A stretch of 64,000 nt of DNA from Eledone cirrhosa (lineage: Eukaryota): positions 25,420,001 through 25,484,000 of the forward strand of contig OZ024757.1 of the NCBI GenBank assembly GCA_964016885.1. Reading direction: 5' to 3'. Positions 4,288 to 62,751 of the stretch are shown one piece after another. The notes under the pieces were generated by a model, which made no database searches, was not told where the DNA came from, and worked only from the letters and a program-made list of their open reading frames with translations. The number at the start of each line of letters is the position of its first letter. The first letter of the stretch is position 1. The position numbers and the translations under genes are program-made.

Positions 4288-4378
4288 CTGGAAAAAAAAA
4301 AAAATCATATTGTATATATATATATATATGCCTATTTTAAGTTGACCGTATGAGGTCTATTTTATATATCAAATATTG

Positions 4379-4438
4379 TATTTTATCTGATGAGAGCATA
4401 CTATAAATTAGTATCCTAGAAATATGTATAATGAAATA
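4379..4438 (+). ncRNA. Hammerhead motif (same family as 62387)
   Basis: UAUUUUAU-CUGAUGA-..AUACUA/UAGUAU..-GAAA-U(AUGU)A-UA/AUGAAAUA. Confidence 0.55.
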
Positions 4439-4546
4439 AATATGATGCTATAGTGATATATTTTCCATTTATTACTATTATTATATATATATAGAAGATA
4501 CTAAGCAGGCTTTGTTTATAAACAGCGGAGATTTGGAAAATAGCTA

Positions 4547-10920: not shown

Positions 10921-11457
10921 ATGTGCATAATCATCAATTAACAGGTATCTTCCATGCTAGCATGGGTTAGACGGGTTTGTCCCATTTAGAGGCAAGTTAG
11001 GTCGGGTGACCGTGTCTCGCTCATATAGGAGAGTTTCTCGGTGTGTATATCATCATCATCATCATCATCATCATTTCATTTTACGTCCGCTTTTTCCCTG
11101 CTTGCAAGGGTGGGACGGGAACTGATGGTGGCTTGATTTCTACAGCTGGATGCCCTTCCTAACACCAACCTCATTTACAGTGAGTGCTGGGTGCTTTTTT
11201 GCCGTGGCACCTCCACGACCACTTTGCAGTGGAATGATAGGGACCTCAGTCCCTATCATCTCATCTCTACAGCTGAGTAAACTGGAGCAATGTGAAATAA
11301 AGTGTCTTGCTCAAGGAAACAACACATCACCCGGTCCGAGAATTGAACTCACAACCTTTCGATTGCAAGGCCAATGCTCTAACCACTAAGCCATATATAT
11401 ATATATATATATAAAAATATGAAAACATGGCGTGCTGCGTGGTTGCAAATGGGTTAC

Positions 11458-11744
11458 ATATGAATAAATTTAGTCCTTCATCAGTGATCTCCCAGCCTTC
11501 ATTGGTATTTCATCGCTTTAAAGGCCATATACCTCTGGTTAGTGCGAGCAATGGCTAAAGAAAGTCGTTGGGAGACGTAAGTAGGGGGAACGAACGTTAC
11601 TGTCTCGCTCGTTCCCCCTATTTACCTGTCCCAACGACTTTCTTTAGCCATTGCTCGCACCAACCAGAGGTATATGGTCTTTAAAGCGATGAAATACCAA
11701 TGAAGGCTGGAAGATCACTGATGAAGGACTAAATTTATTCATAT
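11458..11744. repeat. Near-perfect inverted repeat (arms about 135 bp)
   Basis: seen directly. Confidence 0.92.
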
Positions 11745-11984
11745 ATATATATATATATATATATATACGTGGTTGGTGTTAGGAAGGGCATCCAGCCGTA
11801 GAAAACCCGCCAGACAACCACTCTTGCCTAAAGTGGGAAAACCCCCGTCCAAACCCATGCAAGCGTGGAAGATGGACGTTAAACGATGATGATGATGATG
11901 AAATGGCTGACTGAATACGCACGTGTTTTTTTTCTCCCTGTTCTTTCCTCTTCTCACTCTCTATCTTTCTATTTCTCATTCAAA

Positions 11985-12018
11985 CTTCTGATGAAGGATT
12001 AGTATCCGAAACATTAAG
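11985..12018 (+). ncRNA. Degenerate minimal hammerhead (37184 family)
   Basis: CUU-CUGAUGA-A-GGAU(UAGU)AUCC-GAAACAUU/AAG. Confidence 0.5.
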
Positions 12019-16759: not shown

Positions 16760-17305
16760 AAATGAATTGCCTTCAAATCCTTGATATGAGGGAGAAAATT
16801 AACGATGTTCACTCACTAGAGTTTAATCCCTCACTATTTTGATATATATATATATATATATATATAGAAGCGGTTACACAACAGTTAGTTCACCATACCG
16901 AGAACAATTGTTTCACCTTAGCGGATCCTCAGCTTGACTGAGTGCTCTACCACTACGGATATTACCTTCCAGTGTTCTACCACTATATATATATATATAT
17001 ATATATATAAGTAAGTAGAAGGGATATTTAATTTGTTGGAAACCCAACAAATATAAATGTTTATAACTGATTCAGAGCACTAGACAGATTTCTGGATATT
17101 AAATAAATGGAAACTATATTTATAAATATGGTTTTATAAATATAGTTTCCATTTATTTAATATCATTGTATATATCATCATCATCATCATCGTTTAACGT
17201 CCATCTCCTACGCTTGCATGGGTTTGGATATATATATATAGTAGTAATAAATGTGAAGATCCTGTTACGGGTGAAAGCAGCGATTCTTTGCTTAAACTTT
17301 AATCT

Positions 17306-37183: not shown

Positions 37184-37219
37184 TCTTAACGTTTCGGACG
37201 CTAGTCCTTCATCAGAAGA
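37184..37219 (-). ncRNA. Minimal Penelope-type hammerhead motif
   Basis: UCUU-CUGAUGA-A-GGAC(UAGC)GUCC-GAAACGUU/AAGA. Confidence 0.68.
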
Positions 37220-49074: not shown

Positions 49075-50357
49075 ATCATCATCATCATCATTTTACGTCC
49101 GCTTTTCCCTGCTTGCAAGGGTGGGACGGGTCTTATTCAGCACATCATCTCTCCACTCGTCATCTCCACCATGAGCTTCAATGATCTGAGGTCTGTTCTC
49201 ACCACCTCCGCCCATGTTTTTCGTGGTCTACCTCTACCGCGTCTTCCTTCAACTGGCATTTCCTGGCACTTCTTCATCCATCGGTCATCCTCCATGCGCA
49301 TCACATGTCCATACCACCTCAGTCTCCTCTCCCGTACACTACATTCTATCCCTCTCAGACACAGTTTCTCTCTCAACACATTTATGCTGGGTCGTTCACG
49401 CACATTTACACTGCATATCCAACGGAGCATGCTTGCCTCATTTCTCTCCAGCCGTCGCATATCCTCTGCAGTTGCTGCCTATGTCTCACTACCATGCAGC
49501 ATCGCGCTCCTCACACAGGCATCATACAACCAGCCTTTCGTACGCAGGGAGAAACCCTTCTTCGTCAGTAGAGGAAGCAGCTCCCTAAACTTCTTCCAAC
49601 CCGTCCTTATTCTAGAAACTATGGCCTCGGAACACCCTTCCTCCCATGCTAATCTGATCTCCTAGGTACCAGAAGCTATCCACCACTTCTATAGCGCCCT
49701 CCTGCATTTGAAAAATGTGTCTATCAATGCAACTTCTACTGTCTAATTTCCCTGTACATCTACTGCATACATATTTCTCCCTACCTGTTAGTTTGCCTGC
49801 TATCCCGCTACATCTCTTGTGTACCCAGGATCTGCATTGTGTGCATTTTATAGAATTTATGCCAGTTCCTTTTCTGCATATCGTACATGGCCATTTCCCT
49901 GACGGAATCAGAGTTTTGTCCTCTTTTCTACTCATCAACACTTTTGTCTTAGCGAGGTTCACTCTCAGTCCTCTTGCTTCCAACTGCTGTTTCCATAGCC
50001 AGAATTTATTCTCTAGCTCCTCTACTGATTCTGCTATAAGAACCAGATCATCAGCATAGAGAAGTTCCCATGGACAGCCAGTCTTAAACTCCTCTTGGAG
50101 GACTATAATGAACAAGAGCGGGCTGAGGACCGAACCTTGATGTACTCCTACTTGTATCTGGAATTCCTCACTAAACTCCATTCCTACCCTGACTTTACTG
50201 AGAGTACTTCTGTACAAAGTTTGCACTGTCCTCACAAGCCATTCCTCAACACCTAGCTTCCTTAGGGACCACCAGATGACAGATCGGGGTACCCTATCAA
50301 AGGCCTTCTCTAGGTCAACAAAGGCTAAGTATAGTGGCTTATTTTGGCTTATTTTTT
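49075..50357 (-). mobile_element. 5'-truncated RTE-clade LINE (RT, Cys-rich finger, 3' end with (GAT)n tail)
   Basis: AFVDLEKAFDRV, GVHQGSVLSP, LLYADDL, RLRWYGHV...GRGRPRKTW; frameshifted. Confidence 0.9.
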
Positions 50358-50677
50358 GTATGTATGTATATATTTTTTTATTGACAGTCGATCGACTTTC
50401 GTCGAATTGGACCAAGGAAACAATGTTTCCATTGGTCTTTCCAATTGTTAGTACTATCTATCGGTCACAACTCCAGGTAGAAGGAGCAACGGGAAATAAA
50501 GTGTCTTGCTCAAGGACATAACGCATCACCCTGTCCAGGAATCGAACTCACAACCTCACGATTGAGAATCAAATTCTCTAACCACTGTGTGTGTATATAT
50601 ATGTGTGTGTTTGTGACCAGTATATATAGGTCACAGACACCCACACACATATATATATATATATACACACACGCACG

Positions 50678-51703: not shown

Positions 51704-52332
51704 GTATTTATTATATTTGTATGACTCTCTTAAATATCACGTGACTAATACATCTATCTATCTGTTTGTCTGTCTATCTATCTATCTATCTATCTGTCTA
51801 TCTATCAATCTATCTATCTAACTATTTGTCTATCTATTTATCTGTCCCTCTATCTATCTATCTATCATCATCATCATTTAACATCTATGTTCCACGCTAT
51901 CATGGTAAGATTGGTCGGGTGACTGTGTCTCGCTCGTATAGGACTATCTGGCAGGTTTTCTATGGTTGGATGACCTTCCTAACACCAACCACATTTACAG
52001 TGTGTACTGGGAGCTTTTTACTGTGTTACCTACTCGACCACATTACAGCGTGGACTGTGTTTTTTTGTTTTTTCTCTTTTTCTCTTTCTCTCTTTTTTCT
52101 TTCTTTCTCTTTTCCCTTCTTTTTTCTCCCTGTCTATCCATCCATGCTTTTGTCTTTCTTTCTCTCTCTCATCATCATCATCACCATCATCTAGCAGGTT
52201 GAATAAACAAGTATTTTATCTATTAATTCCTCAATGTATTTTATCTATTAATTCCTCTTATTGTGGTCCTATACATCCAACACCTTTAATAGCAGTTTCG
52301 ATCAACATCGTTTCTCTTCTTCTCTCAAACAG

Positions 52333-52449
52333 CTGGGTGATCTGCAAGGTAGTTACAATGCTGTACAGAAGGCACTGAAGGCCTTCCCACAACACACAGA
52401 GTCGAAGGAACTGTTACAGCAGCTGTGTCAACACTTCTCACTTCTTTGA
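52333..52449 (+). CDS. TTC8: TTC8 exon 10, terminal (LGDLQGSY...FPQHTESKELLQQLCQHFSLL*)
   Basis: conserved BBS8 C-terminus; TGA. Confidence 0.93.
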   Translation: MGDLQGSYNAVQKALKAFPQHTESKELLQQLCQHFSLL

Positions 52450-52724
52450 TGATTTATATGCAGCAATAGCAACGCGAGCAGCAGCAGTAGCAACAACAAC
52501 AACAACAGCACCAGTAACCACATGAGCGGCAACAACAACTGTAACAATACGAGTAACAATAGTGACATCAACGTTAGTAGCAACACGAGCAGCAGCAGCA
52601 GTAGTAACAACACCAGTAGCAACGGCAGCAGCAGCAACAACAACAACGAGAGCAGCCCCAGATGTATCAATAGTAGCAATTCAAATGTGCCATGCTGTAT
52701 CTTCCTAAGAACTACATTAAGAAT

Positions 52725-52783
<59 letters not shown>

Positions 52784-52860
52784 TATGTAGAGGAAAGAAG
52801 AGTGCTCTATGTATTGTACAAAGCTATTTAATTATATAATAAACAACACAATATTTAGAT

Positions 52861-52932
52861 ATTTCATTTGATGAACGAACTGGACATTTCTGTTAGAATC
52901 GTCTAACTTTGTGAAACCTTGGGTAATGGAAT
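52861..52932 (+). ncRNA. Type I hammerhead ribozyme motif (U3 variant), tandem unit 1
   Basis: AUUUCAU-UUGAUGA-stem II-GAAA-CC(UUG)GG-UA/AUGGAAU. Confidence 0.6.
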
Positions 52933-53072
52933 AATTATATTGTGTTGTTTATTATATAATTATATATATATTGTATTTATACATCATCATCGTTTAACGT
53001 CCATCTTCCACGCTACCATGGGTTTGGACGGGACCTATATATATATATGTATATACACATATATATATATAT

Positions 53073-53113
<41 letters not shown>

Positions 53114-53190
53114 TATGTAGAGGAAAGAAGAGTGCTCTATGTATTGTACAAAGCTATTTAATTATATAATAAACAACACAATATTTAGAT

Positions 53191-53262
53191 ATTTCATTTG
53201 ATGAACGAACTGGACATTTCTGTTAGAATCGTCTAACTTTGTGAAACCTTGGGTAATGGAAT
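53191..53262 (+). ncRNA. Type I hammerhead ribozyme motif, tandem unit 2
   Basis: identical to 52861-52932 (+330). Confidence 0.6.
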
Positions 53263-53402
53263 AATTATATTGTGTTGTTTATTATATAATTATATATATA
53301 TTGTATTTATACATCATCATCGTTTAACGTCCATCTTCCACGCTACCATGGGTTTGGACGGGACCTATATATATATATGTATATACACATATATATATAT
53401 AT

Positions 53403-53443
<41 letters not shown>

Positions 53444-53520
53444 TATGTAGAGGAAAGAAGAGTGCTCTATGTATTGTACAAAGCTATTTAATTATATAAT
53501 AAACAACACAATATTTAGAT

Positions 53521-53592
53521 ATTTCATTTGATGAACGAACTGGACATTTCTGTTAGAATCGTCTAACTTTGTGAAACCTTGGGTAATGGAAT
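53521..53592 (+). ncRNA. Type I hammerhead ribozyme motif, tandem unit 3
   Basis: identical to 52861-52932 (+660). Confidence 0.6.
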
Positions 53593-53732
53593 AATTATAT
53601 TGTGTTGTTTATTATATAATTATATATATATTGTATTTATACATCATCATCGTTTAACGTCCATCTTCCACGCTACCATGGGTTTGGACGGGACCTATAT
53701 ATATATATGTATATACACATATATATATATAT

Positions 53733-53773
<41 letters not shown>

Positions 53774-53784
53774 TATATATATGT

Positions 53785-53923: not shown

Positions 53924-54291
53924 TCAACATATGTTGATTTAAAACTGCACTATTCACAAGTTTGTTTTAACCTTCATATCATGTCTCCCTATTTTATCTG
54001 ACGAAAACGCAAATGTTATTGCATGATGATATTTGTTTTATAAATGCGCATAATAAAATACATGGAACTCTTTTAACCATCTTTTGATCTTATATATTAT
54101 TTATACTCCAGTCCTACAAACTGTAGAGTGCTACTTATCCGATATCTGCATTGCTTTATTGTACTACAATAAAACTCACCTCCTACATATAATATATATA
54201 TATATATATCATCATCATCATCATCATCATACGTCCGCTTTTCCCTGCTTATATATAATAAAATACTTATACGTAAATATATATATATATA

Positions 54292-55620
54292 AGACTTTTG
54301 GCAAAACGCTCTGCAATGGGTGTGAGGGATGATCTTTTCGACTGGCTGAAATCCTTCATTCTCAGCCGAAAGGAAGTAGTCACGGTTCTAGGACAGCATT
54401 CTTCACCATATGAGATGTCATCTGGTGTACCACAGGGATCTGTTCTTGGTCCTCTTTTGTTTGTGGTATATATTAATGACATAGATGCCAACTTACAGAA
54501 TGCCACGGTACTAAAATATGCAGATGACATCAAGCTGTACCTTGAAATCAAAAGGACTGATCCTGAAATTTACAACTCTTTCCTACAATCAGACCTGGAC
54601 ACAATGCAGCAATGGATCACAGACTGGCAACTGAAGCTGGCTGTGGACAAGTGTACCACCATGCATTTTGGAAGGAAAAATCCAGCGTCCACAAACTCCC
54701 TCCACAACACTGACATCAAAAAGTCCTCTTGTGAACGTGACCTGGGCATTACTGTCAGCAACGATTTGCGTTGGACAAAGCATGTCTCTAAGATTGTCAA
54801 GAAGGCCGAGGGTGTCTTGGCATCACTCAGCAAGACCTTTGTTAGCCGCTCTCCAGCCATCTATTTAAAACTGTATACAGCTATAGTGCGACCACACTTG
54901 GAATTTGCATCATCAGTCTGGAACCCCTATCTTGCTCGGAACATTGACCTCCTGGAAACTGTTCAGAGACGTGCAACCAAGCGCATACCCTCCATCAGAC
55001 ACCTACCATACTCTGAACGCCTTGCTTCCCTGGGCATGGATTCATTGAAGCTCCGACGTCTGGCAATGGACTTGGTGAATACCCACAAAGTTTTTAACCA
55101 TCTCGCCAACTGCAACCCTGAGCGCCTCTTTGATCTCCATGTGTCTAACACACGTGGACATGCCTACAAGATAAGAAAACAGCACAGCTCCCATGACTTT
55201 CGCAGACATTTTTTCACGCTCAGAGTTGCTGAAGCATGGAACAAACTGCCTGCGTCAATTGTTAGCTGCCGAGACACTGCATCCTTTAAGACACTCATGC
55301 TTCCCGAAATACGCCAAAACTACACCTGATGTACCCCTTCCATACACATGCACACATGTGTGTATCATGACTCGTGCACTGTTCATTTTACTGATGTTTG
55401 TGCATTGCCCTATGTACTGTACATGCACTTTTTTGATGAGTTGTGGTGCACCTGGGCACTGTACACAATATTTCATTATTGTTATTGTTATTATATCATG
55501 ACTCATACACTGTTAATTTTCCTGACATTTGTACATTATTCTATGTACTATACATGCACCTTTGATGAGTTGTAGTGCACCTGAGCACTGTACACAATAA
55601 TTTCATTATTATTATTATTA
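54292..55620 (+). mobile_element. 5'-truncated CR1-clade LINE (343-aa RT ORF, 3' UTR, (ATT)n tail)
   Basis: GVPQGSVLGPLLF, KYADD, RPHLEFASSVWNP, TRGH...RHFFTLRV..AWNKLP. Confidence 0.9.
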
Positions 55621-57820: not shown

Positions 57821-58086
57821 TATTCAGTTGATGAAAGTTGGTAGATCCACCGATGCTTTTGTAAACAGACGTAAATATATAGAATTATGTAATAAAAAGA
57901 TGTACGAACAAAACCGTCTCTCTTATTTATATTATATATATTTAGATGTATACGTATATATATATATATATATTTTATATGAGATTCCGAAGTTGTGTCC
58001 GAAGGTAACCACAGTTAAATAAGGCACACAATACATTGGTAGAATATAGGCATCTTTATTATTTATATAGAAATCAGTTCTACCGG

Positions 58087-58123
58087 ATTAGAACTGTTTC
58101 ATTCGTATGAAATCATCAGTAAT
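58087..58123 (-). ncRNA. Minimal hammerhead motif
   Basis: AUUA-CUGAUGA-UUUC(AUAC)GAAU-GAAA(CAGU)UC/UAAU. Confidence 0.55.
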
Positions 58124-59526
58124 GTCCACCCCTAAGCTCTTGAATCTTCAATTCAAACTACCACTACAGCAATTGAAGTTTCAATTTCTTAAGGGTTATG
58201 TCGTATAACCAATCTCTTATATATTTTATCTGATAAAATATATACTTTGGTTATGATAATATTTCTCATTGATTAATATTTTTAATAATATTATATATAA
58301 ATATATATATATACGATTAGTTAATTATGATTTTATTCAAGATATTCACACACCTATTGCAGCCGTCCTTCAGGTTTTTAAGCCCTGTAAAAAGAATTTT
58401 TACAGGAGGTTTGGACCTAGTCTGTAGCAGCGATGAAGCCATGAAGTTTTCGAATGTGTGTGTATGTTTTGTGTTGTGTGCGTATGCTTGTGTGTGTGTG
58501 TGTATGTGTGTGTGTATTTTTGTATATGTGTGTATGTATGTGTGTTGGTGTGTGTGTATGTATGTTCGCGTACGCTCGTGCCTGTATGCGTGTGTGTTAT
58601 AAATTCTCAACACCGACTGTAAAATTCATGTATGTGTTTATGTATCTATGTAGGTGTCAATGTGACTATGTATGTGTCTATATGTCTATGTATGTGTCAA
58701 TGTGACTATGTATGTGTCTATGTATCTACACATATATATATATTATTCACATTTTTATGTGTATATTAAGTTTAACAGGTGGTGTTCGTGGTGGGTTCTA
58801 TTATTAAATTTAATATGGCCTGGATCAATACTAATCGAACCCTATCAAAGTTAGAATCTATTATAAACTCTTTTTACAAAAGAACATACAAAAATTATCT
58901 GATCTTATCAATTACAACACACAACTGACTTCAACATCTCTCTGCATTCCGACCTTGGATATTTCCCGCCTCTCACAATATATTCTGAATTGGAAAGATG
59001 CTGGTAAGTTGACGTTGCATTTATTTACATCAGATATTCACAGTCTTTCACTTTATTATATCGTAAACTTAACTTTGTTTTATTTTGTAACAGATGTATA
59101 AGAATATAATACTTGCAGAACGAAAACATAAACAAATATAGCGAAATACATTTAAATTAGTATATATTTTATTGTGTATCGATTTAATAACTTAAATATA
59201 TTATAAATACGTTTAATATATATATAACAGTTTACAACACATTAGGAAAAATGTGGTTTTAGGTATTTTTAATAAAGTTAGGGTAATGAAAATTTAACTA
59301 CTGATAGAACATATAATGAGGCATTTAATGATACAATCATATTTTTAAAAAAATAACAAGGAAATAACTCATGAAGAAAAATCAATATTTTTATCACGCA
59401 AAAGTTTACAACACATTTTATATTTATCGCTTTTTTTCAAGAAAATTCTTAAATTTTCAGATTTAAAATTGGGTATGGCTCTCTCCTGTATTATATAGTT
59501 ATGTAATAAACAACATAAGGCAATTA

Positions 59527-59586
59527 TTCCATTTACCAGTGGTTTCTTAAAAGCAAAAGATTTTGCTTTCAATCATCAGAATGAAA
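59527..59586 (-). ncRNA. Type I hammerhead ribozyme, intact core
   Basis: UUUCAUU-CUGAUGA-UUGAAAGCAAAA/UUUUGCUUUUAA-GAAA-CC(ACU)GG-UA/AAUGGAA. Confidence 0.78.
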
Positions 59587-61078
59587 AAATCCTGGAATAA
59601 TTGCCTTATGTTGTTTATTACATAACTATTAAGCTCTGTTACCTACATAGAACACTCTTTTTTCCTTAACTTTTCCGACGGAATTACTTCATTTATACAG
59701 CTCCAACCGAGATTGATTGAAGCATATTCTATATTACATATACGATTGGCACTATATATATATATATAATTGTTTCTACTTTAGGCACAAGGCCAGCAAA
59801 TACCCCAGTGCATTACTGGGACTTTATTTTATTGATTCTGTAAGGATGAAAGGCAAAGTTAACCTTGGTGGGATTTGAACTCAGAACGTAAAAGGCCATA
59901 ACTCTATGCTGCAAAGCATGGTGTCTGACGCGTTACCGATTCTGCCAATCCACTGCCCTTATGTATATATAATACGCAGGGACATGGAAATACTCGGTTT
60001 GATGCCCAAGCGCATTGTTAGCCCACTGGAAGTGAGAGACCCCTAGTTAGGACATCATTCTAGGAGAAGGATAATTCTGATGTTGATCTGTTCTTCTGTT
60101 TGGATACTAGTCACTGTAGTTCAGAGAGTGTTATTGGTCCAATGCAAGGCTTTTTTATACTTAACCCTTTAGCATTTACATTACTCTATATATACTATTA
60201 TATTTTCATGGTAAAATTTTTATCTCACATATCGAATCAACAAAATTTTGATGTTACTTATTTTGAGAACAATACCTTAACGCCAGTATGAGTGGCTTCT
60301 ACAATACACAACTGCTTATTTTAATGTTTATCTTTATCTAAAGACTATTATAAGTTTATATAAAAACCTTTGTTATCCCTTTAGTAGTTACATTACTCTA
60401 TATTTACTATTGTATTTTCATGGTTATCTCACATAATATCGAATCTACGAGATTTTGATATTATTTATTTTGAGAACAATACCTTAACATCAGTATGAGT
60501 GGCTAGTTACAGCCAGTTTGAACAGAAAGAGGTGAGAGAATTCTGGCCGGATATGGCTGGTTTAAATGCTAAAGTTTTGAGTGTTAAGAAAGCTTCAAAC
60601 ACAGGCATCAGTTGATCTAAAGAACTTTCACGTGTGTTGCGTGAGCATGGCCTTTTCTCTTTTCTTTTACTGCAGCATACACAGAAAAGAATCTAAGTCT
60701 TTGGCGGGGCTAAAAATGTTATGTTCGCACCACCCTTGTATTAGAAAATGGCAATTTTCGAAACTGAGATGTTGCCATTCTGAGTTAAATCCCGCCGAGG
60801 TTAACTTTACCTTTCATCCTTACGGGGTCGATAAAATAAAGTACCAGTAATGAACTGGGTAATTGCTGGCCTTGTGCCAAAAGTAGAAACAATTATGTAT
60901 ATGCATATCATTTTACGTTCACTTTTCCCTGCTTGCAAGGGTAGGACGGGTCCTATTCAGCACAGCATCTCTCCAGTCCTTCGTCATCTCCTCCGTGAGC
61001 TTCAGTGATCTGAGGTCTGCTCCCACCACCTTCGCCCATGTTTTTGTGGTCTTACTCTACTGCGATTTCTTATATATA

Positions 61079-61129
<51 letters not shown>

Positions 61130-62210
61130 ATCATCATCTTCGTTTAATGTCCATTAATGTCCATCTTCCACGCTGGCATGGGTTATGTATATATATATAT
61201 ATATATATAATGTGTGTGTGTGTATATATTAAAAAAAATCAAAACTAACCCAGTATATCTGTAATATTTATTTTATTTCATCTTTTTTTTTTTATCTTAT
61301 TTTATTTGTGGGGTTTCTTGTTTCTTCAGCAAGATAATTTTCGTCACAATATGAAATAAAATCTCCAAACTTATTTCTTTCAATAACGTAGAACCAAGAA
61401 CAAATGTATTTCATCTCCTAATCTTTTATTCTGACCACCCGTCTCCATTCATTTTTTCTTTTCTTTTCTTAAACAACTTGAGAACCAAGTGAGAATGACA
61501 AAATGAATTTATTAAAGATCTTACATGAAAATCTGAGTTTTTTTTCCTCAAGCCAAAAACGAAAAAAACTAAACAAAATTAAACAAAACAAAACAACAAA
61601 AGATAAACAAAAACAAATATAAACCAGGAATGTATTTATGCTCCCATTTCATCTCACATATTATAATCTCTCTCTCTTTCTACACACACACACACATATA
61701 TATATGAAGGAGTCAGGACTTATTCATATAACTATACTCTAGTACCCCAAGTATCAAGTACTCTGGTGAGTCTAACAGGTTTTTACTGCATCCATTCTGA
61801 TATATATACATATATATATAATGAAGGAGGTGTGGTGAGGAACCAGATGGACCATAATGCACCAGAAATAGCCGTCGAAACGGCTTGAGTTCTGCTGCCG
61901 GGGTCAAACATTTTCCTATATATATATAATTCGATTTTGAATTTTTGCGAGATTTCTTATCTGAAAACGTGTGTTGAAACAGATATTGTTATACTTTGGA
62001 AGGGTCATGTTGCCAATAAAACTTTATTGGGAACATGACCCTCCCAAAGTATAACAATAAAAAAAATATATATATATATATATATAAGCAAACGGTATAT
62101 TCAATTTGTTGGTAATTCAACAAATATATATGTTTATAACTGATTCAGAGCACTCGACAGGTTTTCTGGAGTATAATATTCAATGATATTAAATAAATGG
62201 AAACTATATT

Positions 62211-62271
62211 TATTCTATTATATATATTTCAAGGGTACCAAAACTTTGATATGCTTTCATCAGATAAAATA
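62211..62271 (-). ncRNA. Type I hammerhead ribozyme (left arm of palindrome)
   Basis: reverse complement of 62387-62447. Confidence 0.7.
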
Positions 62272-62386
62272 CAAAATTTGTTTTATAAATTTTGACATAA
62301 CCAAGAAAAAGATACCTTACTGGTTCAAGTTTTCCTTGGATAGTATCTTTTTCTAGGTTATGTCAAAATTTATAAAACAAATTTTG

Positions 62387-62447
62387 TATTTTATCTGATG
62401 AAAGCATATCAAAGTTTTGGTACCCTTGAAATATATATAATAGAATA
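62387..62447 (+). ncRNA. Type I hammerhead ribozyme (right arm of palindrome)
   Basis: UAUUUUAU-CUGAUGA-AAG..CUU-GAAA-U(AUAU)A-UA/AUAGAAUA. Confidence 0.7.
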
Positions 62448-62708
62448 AATATAGTTTCCATTTATTTAATATCATTGAATATATATGAAAGAGTCAGGAC
62501 CCCGATAGCTGAGCTTTGGCCGTTTCAACAGCTGGTTCTGGAACTAGTTGTTTAAATGGCAGGAGCTCAGCTATCGGGGTCCTGATTCTTTGATATAACC
62601 ATACTCTACTACTCCAAGTATGGAGTACTCTGGTGAGTAATGGTCTAACCAGTTTCTTACTGCATCCATCTTGATTTTATTTATTTTTATATATATATAT
62701 ATATATAA

Positions 62709-62751
62709 ACCGAGCTGAGGATCCGAATAAGGTGAAACATTTGTTCTCGGT
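62709..62751 (+). ncRNA. Hammerhead motif (U.U-closed stem II)
   Basis: ACCGAG-CUGAGGA-UCCGAAUAAGGU-GAAAC(AUUU)GUU/CUCGGU; homolog at 16897-16938 (-). Confidence 0.6.

Follow-up and report, generated by a model that had tools for sequence, protein, structure and literature searches.

A hammerhead ribozyme motif within a head-to-head repeat stub of Eledone cirrhosa, most likely a Penelope-like pseudo-LTR end

The locus at 59.5 kb of the analysed window (a stretch of 64,000 nucleotides of Eledone cirrhosa DNA) carries a minus-strand hammerhead motif enclosed by a perfect hairpin. We consider it highly probable that this locus is a stub formed by head-to-head, 5'-truncated copies of a high-copy hammerhead repeat, in all likelihood a pseudo-LTR end that derives from a Penelope-like retroelement (PLE) or from a non-autonomous derivative of one, the hairpin being likely a by-product of insertion. 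The feature is real and represents a further member of a kind of element already known. The window as a whole consists of AT-rich animal DNA with many microsatellites and repeats; the coordinates of the features discussed are given in Table 1.

Table 1. Features of the 59.5-kb stub and of the related stub in the 330-bp tandem unit (positions in the window).
Feature	Positions	Strand	Description
Direct 5'-truncated repeat copy	59495..59595	-	Hammerhead with 13-16 nt before its core and 39 nt past the predicted cut
Arm	59593..59629	+	Initial 37 nt of the second copy, which is inverted and 5'-truncated; complements 59495-59531 exactly; starts at +3 after the predicted cut
3-nt microhomology	59593..59595	.	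Common to the 5' ends of the direct and inverted copies
One-sided tail	59630..59752	+	Family sequence of 123 nt that the direct copy lacks
Tail hairpin	59633..59653	+	7 bp, AC-rich 7-nt loop
(TA)n run	59753..59768	.	Outer end of the tail; likely target
Stem I	59586-59580/59533-59527	-	7 bp, one G-U
CUGAUGA box	59579-59573	-	
Stem II	59572-59562/59557-59547	-	11 bp, one G-U, 4-nt loop
GAAA box	59546-59543	-	
Stem III of the 59.5-kb motif		-	A-U, C-G, C-G; 3-nt loop
Helix III and loop	59535..59543	-	Odd palindrome
GUA	59536-59534	-	Predicted cut between 59534 and 59533
Sister-subfamily stub, first 330-bp unit	52787..52962	+	Repeats at +330 and +660
Sister stub arms	52829-52854/52937-52962	+	26 bp; arm starts at +12 after the cut
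Sister stub hammerhead core	52868-52925	+	U at core position 3; 38-nt stem-loop II

The type I hammerhead motif spans positions 59586-59527 of the minus strand, where the original prediction had placed it, and harbors the CUGANGA, GAAA and NUH core boxes in the type I order, surrounded by three helices of 7, 11 and 3 bp. A strict descriptor (stems of 7/10/3) retrieved this single site in the window and no site in 200 out of 200 block-wise dinucleotide shuffles; a relaxed descriptor retrieved eight sites versus a null mean of 0.33 and a maximum of 3. The 10.1-11.1 pair is U-A, the usual G-C closing pair being absent. The G10.1-C11.1 pair is highly conserved, not invariant, in type I hammerheads; natural compensatory changes at these two places are described for Dolichopoda (PMC2837043), and the accessible part of PMC544870 contains nothing on the effect of a U10.1-A11.1 pair. 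The Rfam hammerhead models did not match anywhere over the window at the gathering score, and at E up to 10 no hammerhead family appeared among the 119 matches over 52.7-60 kb or among the 6 over 59.5-59.6 kb; an Rfam match is a library criterion and not a mechanistic one.

According to the folding predictions, the isolated 60-mer is moderately stable (z -1.7), with stem I pair probabilities of 0.25-0.60 and an active fold lying at most 0.1 kcal/mol from the MFE. Its helix III palindrome gave a predicted 8-bp intermolecular duplex of -8.2 kcal/mol and no hairpin when folded alone. An odd palindrome is found in helix III of both subfamilies described below (A-U vs. U-G beside the centre), and by analogy with the metazoan PLE hammerheads, for which the available text reports a large helix II, a palindromic helix III and weak activity as monomers (PMC4209133), it would favour a dimeric ribozyme. 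The minimal hammerheads of that study share with ours the CUGANGA/GAAA/GUH core, the large helix II and the palindromic helix III, and likewise occur mostly as solo truncated copies, with several families per genome. They differ in stem I, which is of 4-5 bp in those ribozymes and of 7 bp here, where helix III has 3 bp; moreover, two traits of the metazoan PLE consensus described there, i.e., the extra base after A9 and the G10.1-C11.1 pair, are missing from the 59.5-kb ribozyme.

The inverted repeat said to enclose the hammerhead proved exact over 37 bp (59495-59531 vs. 59593-59629) and begins at position +3 relative to the cut. The locus is made up of two copies of one family, with their 5' ends joined via a 3-nt microhomology and their 3' ends pointing outward; the inverted copy is 123 nt longer on its 3' side, where it ends at a (TA)n run, and at the left end there is only a short TA stretch, no (TA)3 run being present outside the arm. 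The same organization is known from endonuclease-positive PLE insertions, which likewise have an adjacent inverted copy, 5'-shorter and head to head, with a microhomology junction. PLEs are reported to leave 5'-truncated copies, each beside an inverted one, with a tail of 30-40 bp at one end and a bias for (TA)n (PMC8557442); the copies are mostly head to head, and microhomology junctions occur among them (PMC3846280). At 59.5 kb the tail is also on one copy only, being 123 nt long in comparison with the published 30-40 bp, and AT-rich or (TA)n ends are found at 59753 as well as at 59492 and 59697, where records of the family run into (TA)n. A type I hammerhead with a palindromic helix III in the pseudo-LTR and an AC-rich stem-loop in the tail region are further traits in common with PLE insertions. 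The copy of the anole element ends inside the tail hairpin, whereas the copies studied here end beside or beyond it, at several points. Furthermore, unlike for the Penelope/Poseidon, Neptune, Nematis and Hydra elements, no RT/GIY-YIG ORF could be linked to the 59.5-kb stub, in which, being truncated, none is to be expected; none was found near it among the ORFs of at least 90 aa at 40-64 kb. Like the length of the tail, the position of the copy ends and the two missing consensus traits, this speaks against the PLE reading.

By analogy with the anole Poseidon element, which is reported to cut both strands of AT-rich DNA and to start cDNA synthesis at two internal sites in an AC-rich stem-loop (PMC11167929), an RT/GIY-YIG protein would nick both strands of an AT-rich target, and cDNA synthesis would start at two different internal sites of the RNA, which would explain the one-sided tail. 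Each nicked strand would prime one short cDNA, and the two products would then be joined by microhomology. The hammerhead belongs to the element and would process its precursor RNA, probably as a dimer via the palindromic helix III or with the help of a protein. In the available text of the anole study, the hammerhead cuts only with protein present, and cleavage is unnecessary for insertion in vitro (PMC11167929).

One pair of the tail hairpin is broken in the 59.5-kb copy; the letter that closes it makes up 99.7% of the depth at 59652 in sequencing run X1 (see below) and only 26% in run X4, and the 330-bp unit has an intact counterpart of the hairpin (52824-52804, minus strand). The tail is also open in one frame for 43 codons (59626-59754, plus strand), and by our own count eight of the nine variant places in it fall at codon positions 1 or 3, which is not significant. 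As the start of a PLE ORF this frame was rejected, since a weak search with 11 candidates gave no protein match at E up to 10. A second repeat of lower copy number (59200-59470; X1 depth up to about 1e4) adjoins the left end of the stub, and strand-switch joints within it are present in X4 contigs.

A different origin of the arm could be, in principle, a local replication template switch after insertion, or the stub could be a MITE-like element with terminal inverted repeats. Exact inverted repeats of at least 20 bp are indeed common in the window (23 rows), and microhomology junctions also mark repair-type switches. Nevertheless, the 123 nt of the inverted copy are absent beside the direct copy and so were not copied locally, which rules out a simple local fold-back; both arm lengths and one-sided tails vary between loci, unlike the fixed terminal repeats of a MITE. 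We therefore regard this pair of explanations as very improbable in comparison with the joining of two truncated PLE copies.

The abundance and the boundaries of the family were assessed on contigs matching 58760-59760 at 80% likeness in four of the ten listed sequencing runs (X1, X4, X6 and X7), no RNA run being among the ten; runs X2, X3 and X5 as well as three raw RAD-seq runs were left out of the comparison. The family is present in all four runs, which bear four organism labels and come from three studies, with 2768, 491, 37 and 8 matching contigs, respectively. In X1, which may be the source sample, the summed depth over 59508-59677 is 3e5-9e5 versus 8-50 for single listed contigs, a figure that, according to the warning of the tool, is no copy number. 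The family is abundant. Pattern scans of viral contigs, and two of metagenome contigs, gave no matches.

Other copies diverge from the reference at 59595, in at least 39 X1 records (agreement 0.78) and in one record each of X4 and X6, and one X7 record diverges at 59588, its loose letters including 59593-59595. All of these records enter one shared body, whose AATAAA box precedes the core by about 20 nt. The arm does not belong to the element; other copies have the element body in its place. Toward the other side, the X1 depth of the tail is 3e5-4e5 at 59610-59677, 8e4 at 59678-59711 and 5e3 at 59712-59745, and X1 records 7 and 8 extend to 59751-59752. Loose ends running into (TA)n were retrieved at 59492 (at least 43 records) and at 59697 (at least 19), where some other copies end. 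A further loose end at 59546 (at least 20 X1 records) corresponds to copies with a different stem II, and its reverse complement agrees by eye with the last 30 nt of the stem II of the 330-bp unit at 20 of 30 positions, ungapped. Neither an empty allele nor a target-site duplication was seen; no contig joins across the 59.5-kb site, the TA repeats mask a duplication, and 58760-59065, in the unique left flank, is mostly uncovered in all four runs.

The comparison of the family copies gave six variant places within the 60-nt ribozyme, two of them in loop II and none in the 12 core places (P 0.245, not significant). Three of the four stem variants keep the pair (G-U to A-U, G-U to G-C and A-U to G-U, all one-sided), and the one at 59562 (12% in X1) breaks the loop-closing pair. 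Taken at the level of the sequence, these data may represent modest signs of constraint on the ribozyme.

The outer hairpin overlaps stem I, as had been anticipated, the arm covering five of the seven bases of its 3' strand. In the minus-strand transcript of the 59.5-kb copy the arm is predicted to pair with this strand: the predicted stem I probability is 0.00 with the arm versus 0.33-0.50 without it, and the arm-paired state lies about 8 kcal/mol below the fully active fold. Since the arm is predicted to abolish stem I, this transcript would be inactive, and on the basis of the folding model the copy is probably a silent genomic fossil. The same overlap, together with the fact that the sister stub of the 330-bp unit is likewise armed, might be read as an evolved folding switch, in which the arm would keep the ribozyme inactive, and thereby control a host transcript, until stem I is released by a helicase, by antisense RNA or by a shift of the transcription start. 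However, several aspects are at odds with such a switch: (i) other copies have the element body and not the arm; (ii) the length and the start of the arm vary by locus (37 bp from +3 vs. 26 bp from +12), and the arm of the sister stub, starting at +12, does not contact stem I; (iii) a perfect 37-bp duplex represents a trap rather than a poised switch; and (iv) no minus-strand host exon was found nearby among the ORFs of at least 90 aa. Moreover, inverted arms with a one-sided extension are found at five loci of the window (11.4-11.75, 17.0-17.2, 52.8-53.0, 59.5-59.75 and 62.1-62.5 kb), and the one at 17.0-17.2 kb has the hairpin architecture without a hammerhead core, which implies that the hairpin is independent of the ribozyme. 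Nothing suggests selection for a switch at 59.5 kb, and we consider this explanation extremely unlikely, the least probable of those weighed here. Hence, the original prediction, which left the choice between a folding switch and a Penelope inverted pseudo-LTR, is upheld in its second part by the truncated head-to-head copies, the microhomology, the tail, the (TA)n and the high copy number, and not in its first, as far as an evolved feature is meant. Perfect hairpins round such ribozymes call for caution, as they mimic switches and compensatory change without selection.

The homology between the 59.5-kb locus and the 330-bp tandem unit was also recovered: the arm with its flank matches each unit over 61 nt at 78.7% (E 2.5e-9), and the whole stub matches the unit at 67% (E 9e-11). 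The two loci represent two subfamilies with unrelated stem II (26 and 38 nt). The sister stub has a tail of about 40 nt, close to the 30-40 bp of PLE insertions, and (TA)n at both ends. It had been proposed that the two loci share their architecture with a different stem II and compensated arms; the shared architecture holds, both stubs being armed, whereas each arm turned out to be a copy of the 3' end of its own element. Covariation between the arms is thus rejected.

This array is also the place where the main alternative concerning the nature of the family can be evaluated, that is, whether the 59.5-kb copy is a lone representative of a non-LTR retrozyme. Such retrozymes are tandem repeats without a protein of their own, and their hammerhead resolves multimers to monomers, which then circularise as rod-like RNAs; under this reading the hairpin would belong to the rod, and the 330-bp array would be an active locus. 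The animal non-LTR retrozymes (PMC7229834; 10.64898/2026.07.22.740005) are likewise described, in the portions available, as AT-rich, non-coding repeats of an invertebrate-like genome that occur in many copies and carry a type I hammerhead, and as being tandem; here, three related, hammerhead-like units in the retrozyme size range lie 6 kb away, and no ORF was found (ORFs of at least 90 aa at 40-64 kb, and the tail frame). Furthermore, according to a preprint (10.64898/2026.07.22.740005), animal retrozymes derive from PLE pseudo-LTRs, so that retrozymes and PLE stubs grade into each other. Unlike those elements, the 59.5-kb copy is solo and head to head instead of consisting of head-to-tail units with complete hammerheads, its arms are missing from other copies, and arm lengths vary between loci. 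As for the tandem, it is a triplicated patch whose core is changed and whose flanks are foreign: each unit has a U at core position 3 and contains TA microsatellite sequence as well as part of an unrelated repeat that occurs at 17 other places of the window. Over 243 non-microsatellite bases the three units do not differ, an identity pointing to a local triplication or an assembly duplicate. From its sequence we read the unit as a decayed stub of the sister subfamily, triplicated with its flanks, and the array as a recent local triplication or assembly duplicate and not as an active retrozyme, a candidate that the changed position 3, the foreign flanks and the identity of the three units disfavour. 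On the whole, we judge the retrozyme origin of the 59.5-kb copy improbable, and a truncated PLE end remains the preferred reading.

The units (52723-53776) lie about 300 nt after the apparent stop codon of TTC8, on the same strand, and may be located in its 3' UTR. The exon at 47293-47592 matches BBS8/TTC8 (E 8.8e-28), and 52331-52450 was read by eye as a putative last TTC8 exon. Two frames of 350 and 281 aa (54277-55329 and 49612-50457, both on the minus strand) are, as we presume from their motifs, LINE-like reverse transcriptase fragments; neither adjoins a hammerhead stub. A bacterial promoter and terminator scan remained at chance level, bacterial models being not apt for an animal genome.

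A further possibility concerns the position of the junctions. The family junctions might record self-cleavage in vivo, with the cleaved 3' RNA fragments serving as templates, so that many copies would start at the cut, and with the head-to-head joining burying the ribozyme in an inhibitory hairpin; we regard this as an unlikely, although conceivable, extension of the PLE reading. The inverted half at 59.5 kb starts at +3, two bases short of the 5' end of the cut product. Two of the four X1 joints listed diverge at 59532, 0-2 nt from the cut (rough P 0.012, open to mapping bias), and one of them has two ambiguous letters that include the exact cut site. Position 59532 is the first base outside the duplicated arm, and mapping may therefore favour it. 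The three junctions within 0-2 nt of the predicted cut site are a weak hint. Against cut-site templates, the start of the sister stub is at +12, the loose ends listed include none at the cut site, and the accessible part of the anole in vitro study has no reads ending there (PMC11167929). The role of PLE hammerheads is described as unclear in the text available (PMC8557442). If the junctions do record cleavage, this role would become testable by a genome-wide count of copy starts; a family of this abundance has the statistical power needed to see whether its copies begin at the cut.

Searches of titles and abstracts on octopus hammerhead ribozymes retrieved no such family among the papers listed, which Repbase or Dfam may already hold, and those on cephalopod Penelope elements and on truncation at the cleavage site retrieved none either. 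A 2026 Octopus repeat annotation lists Penelope-like families, its main text being without mention of a hammerhead or ribozyme (PMC13282606). The 59.5-kb stub represents ordinary retroelement debris; its value for annotation lies in a high-copy hammerhead family with two stem II subfamilies missed by the Rfam models.

Other hammerhead and hairpin loci were observed in the window. A head-to-head stub of another family (62100-62490) has 140-nt arms at 99%, a one-sided tail of about 70 nt and a hammerhead core in both arms (62263-62219 on the minus strand and 62395-62439 on the plus strand), with relatives at 4361-4443 and 17057-17164. To the same family belongs the core-less hairpin stub at 17020-17170 (32-bp arms, 6-nt spacer), both of whose arms resume the sequence of the family near +6 relative to the cut predicted there; three non-family bases are common to both arms, which suggests fold-back copying.

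Two related textbook minimal PLE-type hammerheads lie at 37188-37215 (minus strand) and 11988-12015 (plus strand). Both have the extra base after A9, the G10.1-C11.1 pair and a helix III that is short and, at 37 kb, palindromic; the sequence following each of them ends in (TA)n. At 11414-11760, a 142-nt inverted repeat (94%) between TA runs is extended on one side by a tail of about 41 nt; close to either outer end lies a CUGAUGA box, for which no GAAA partner was found. Finally, CUGANGA...GAAA motifs that fail the relaxed descriptor were seen by eye at 58083-58120 (minus strand) and 62712-62750 (plus strand), and they are possibly decayed hammerheads.
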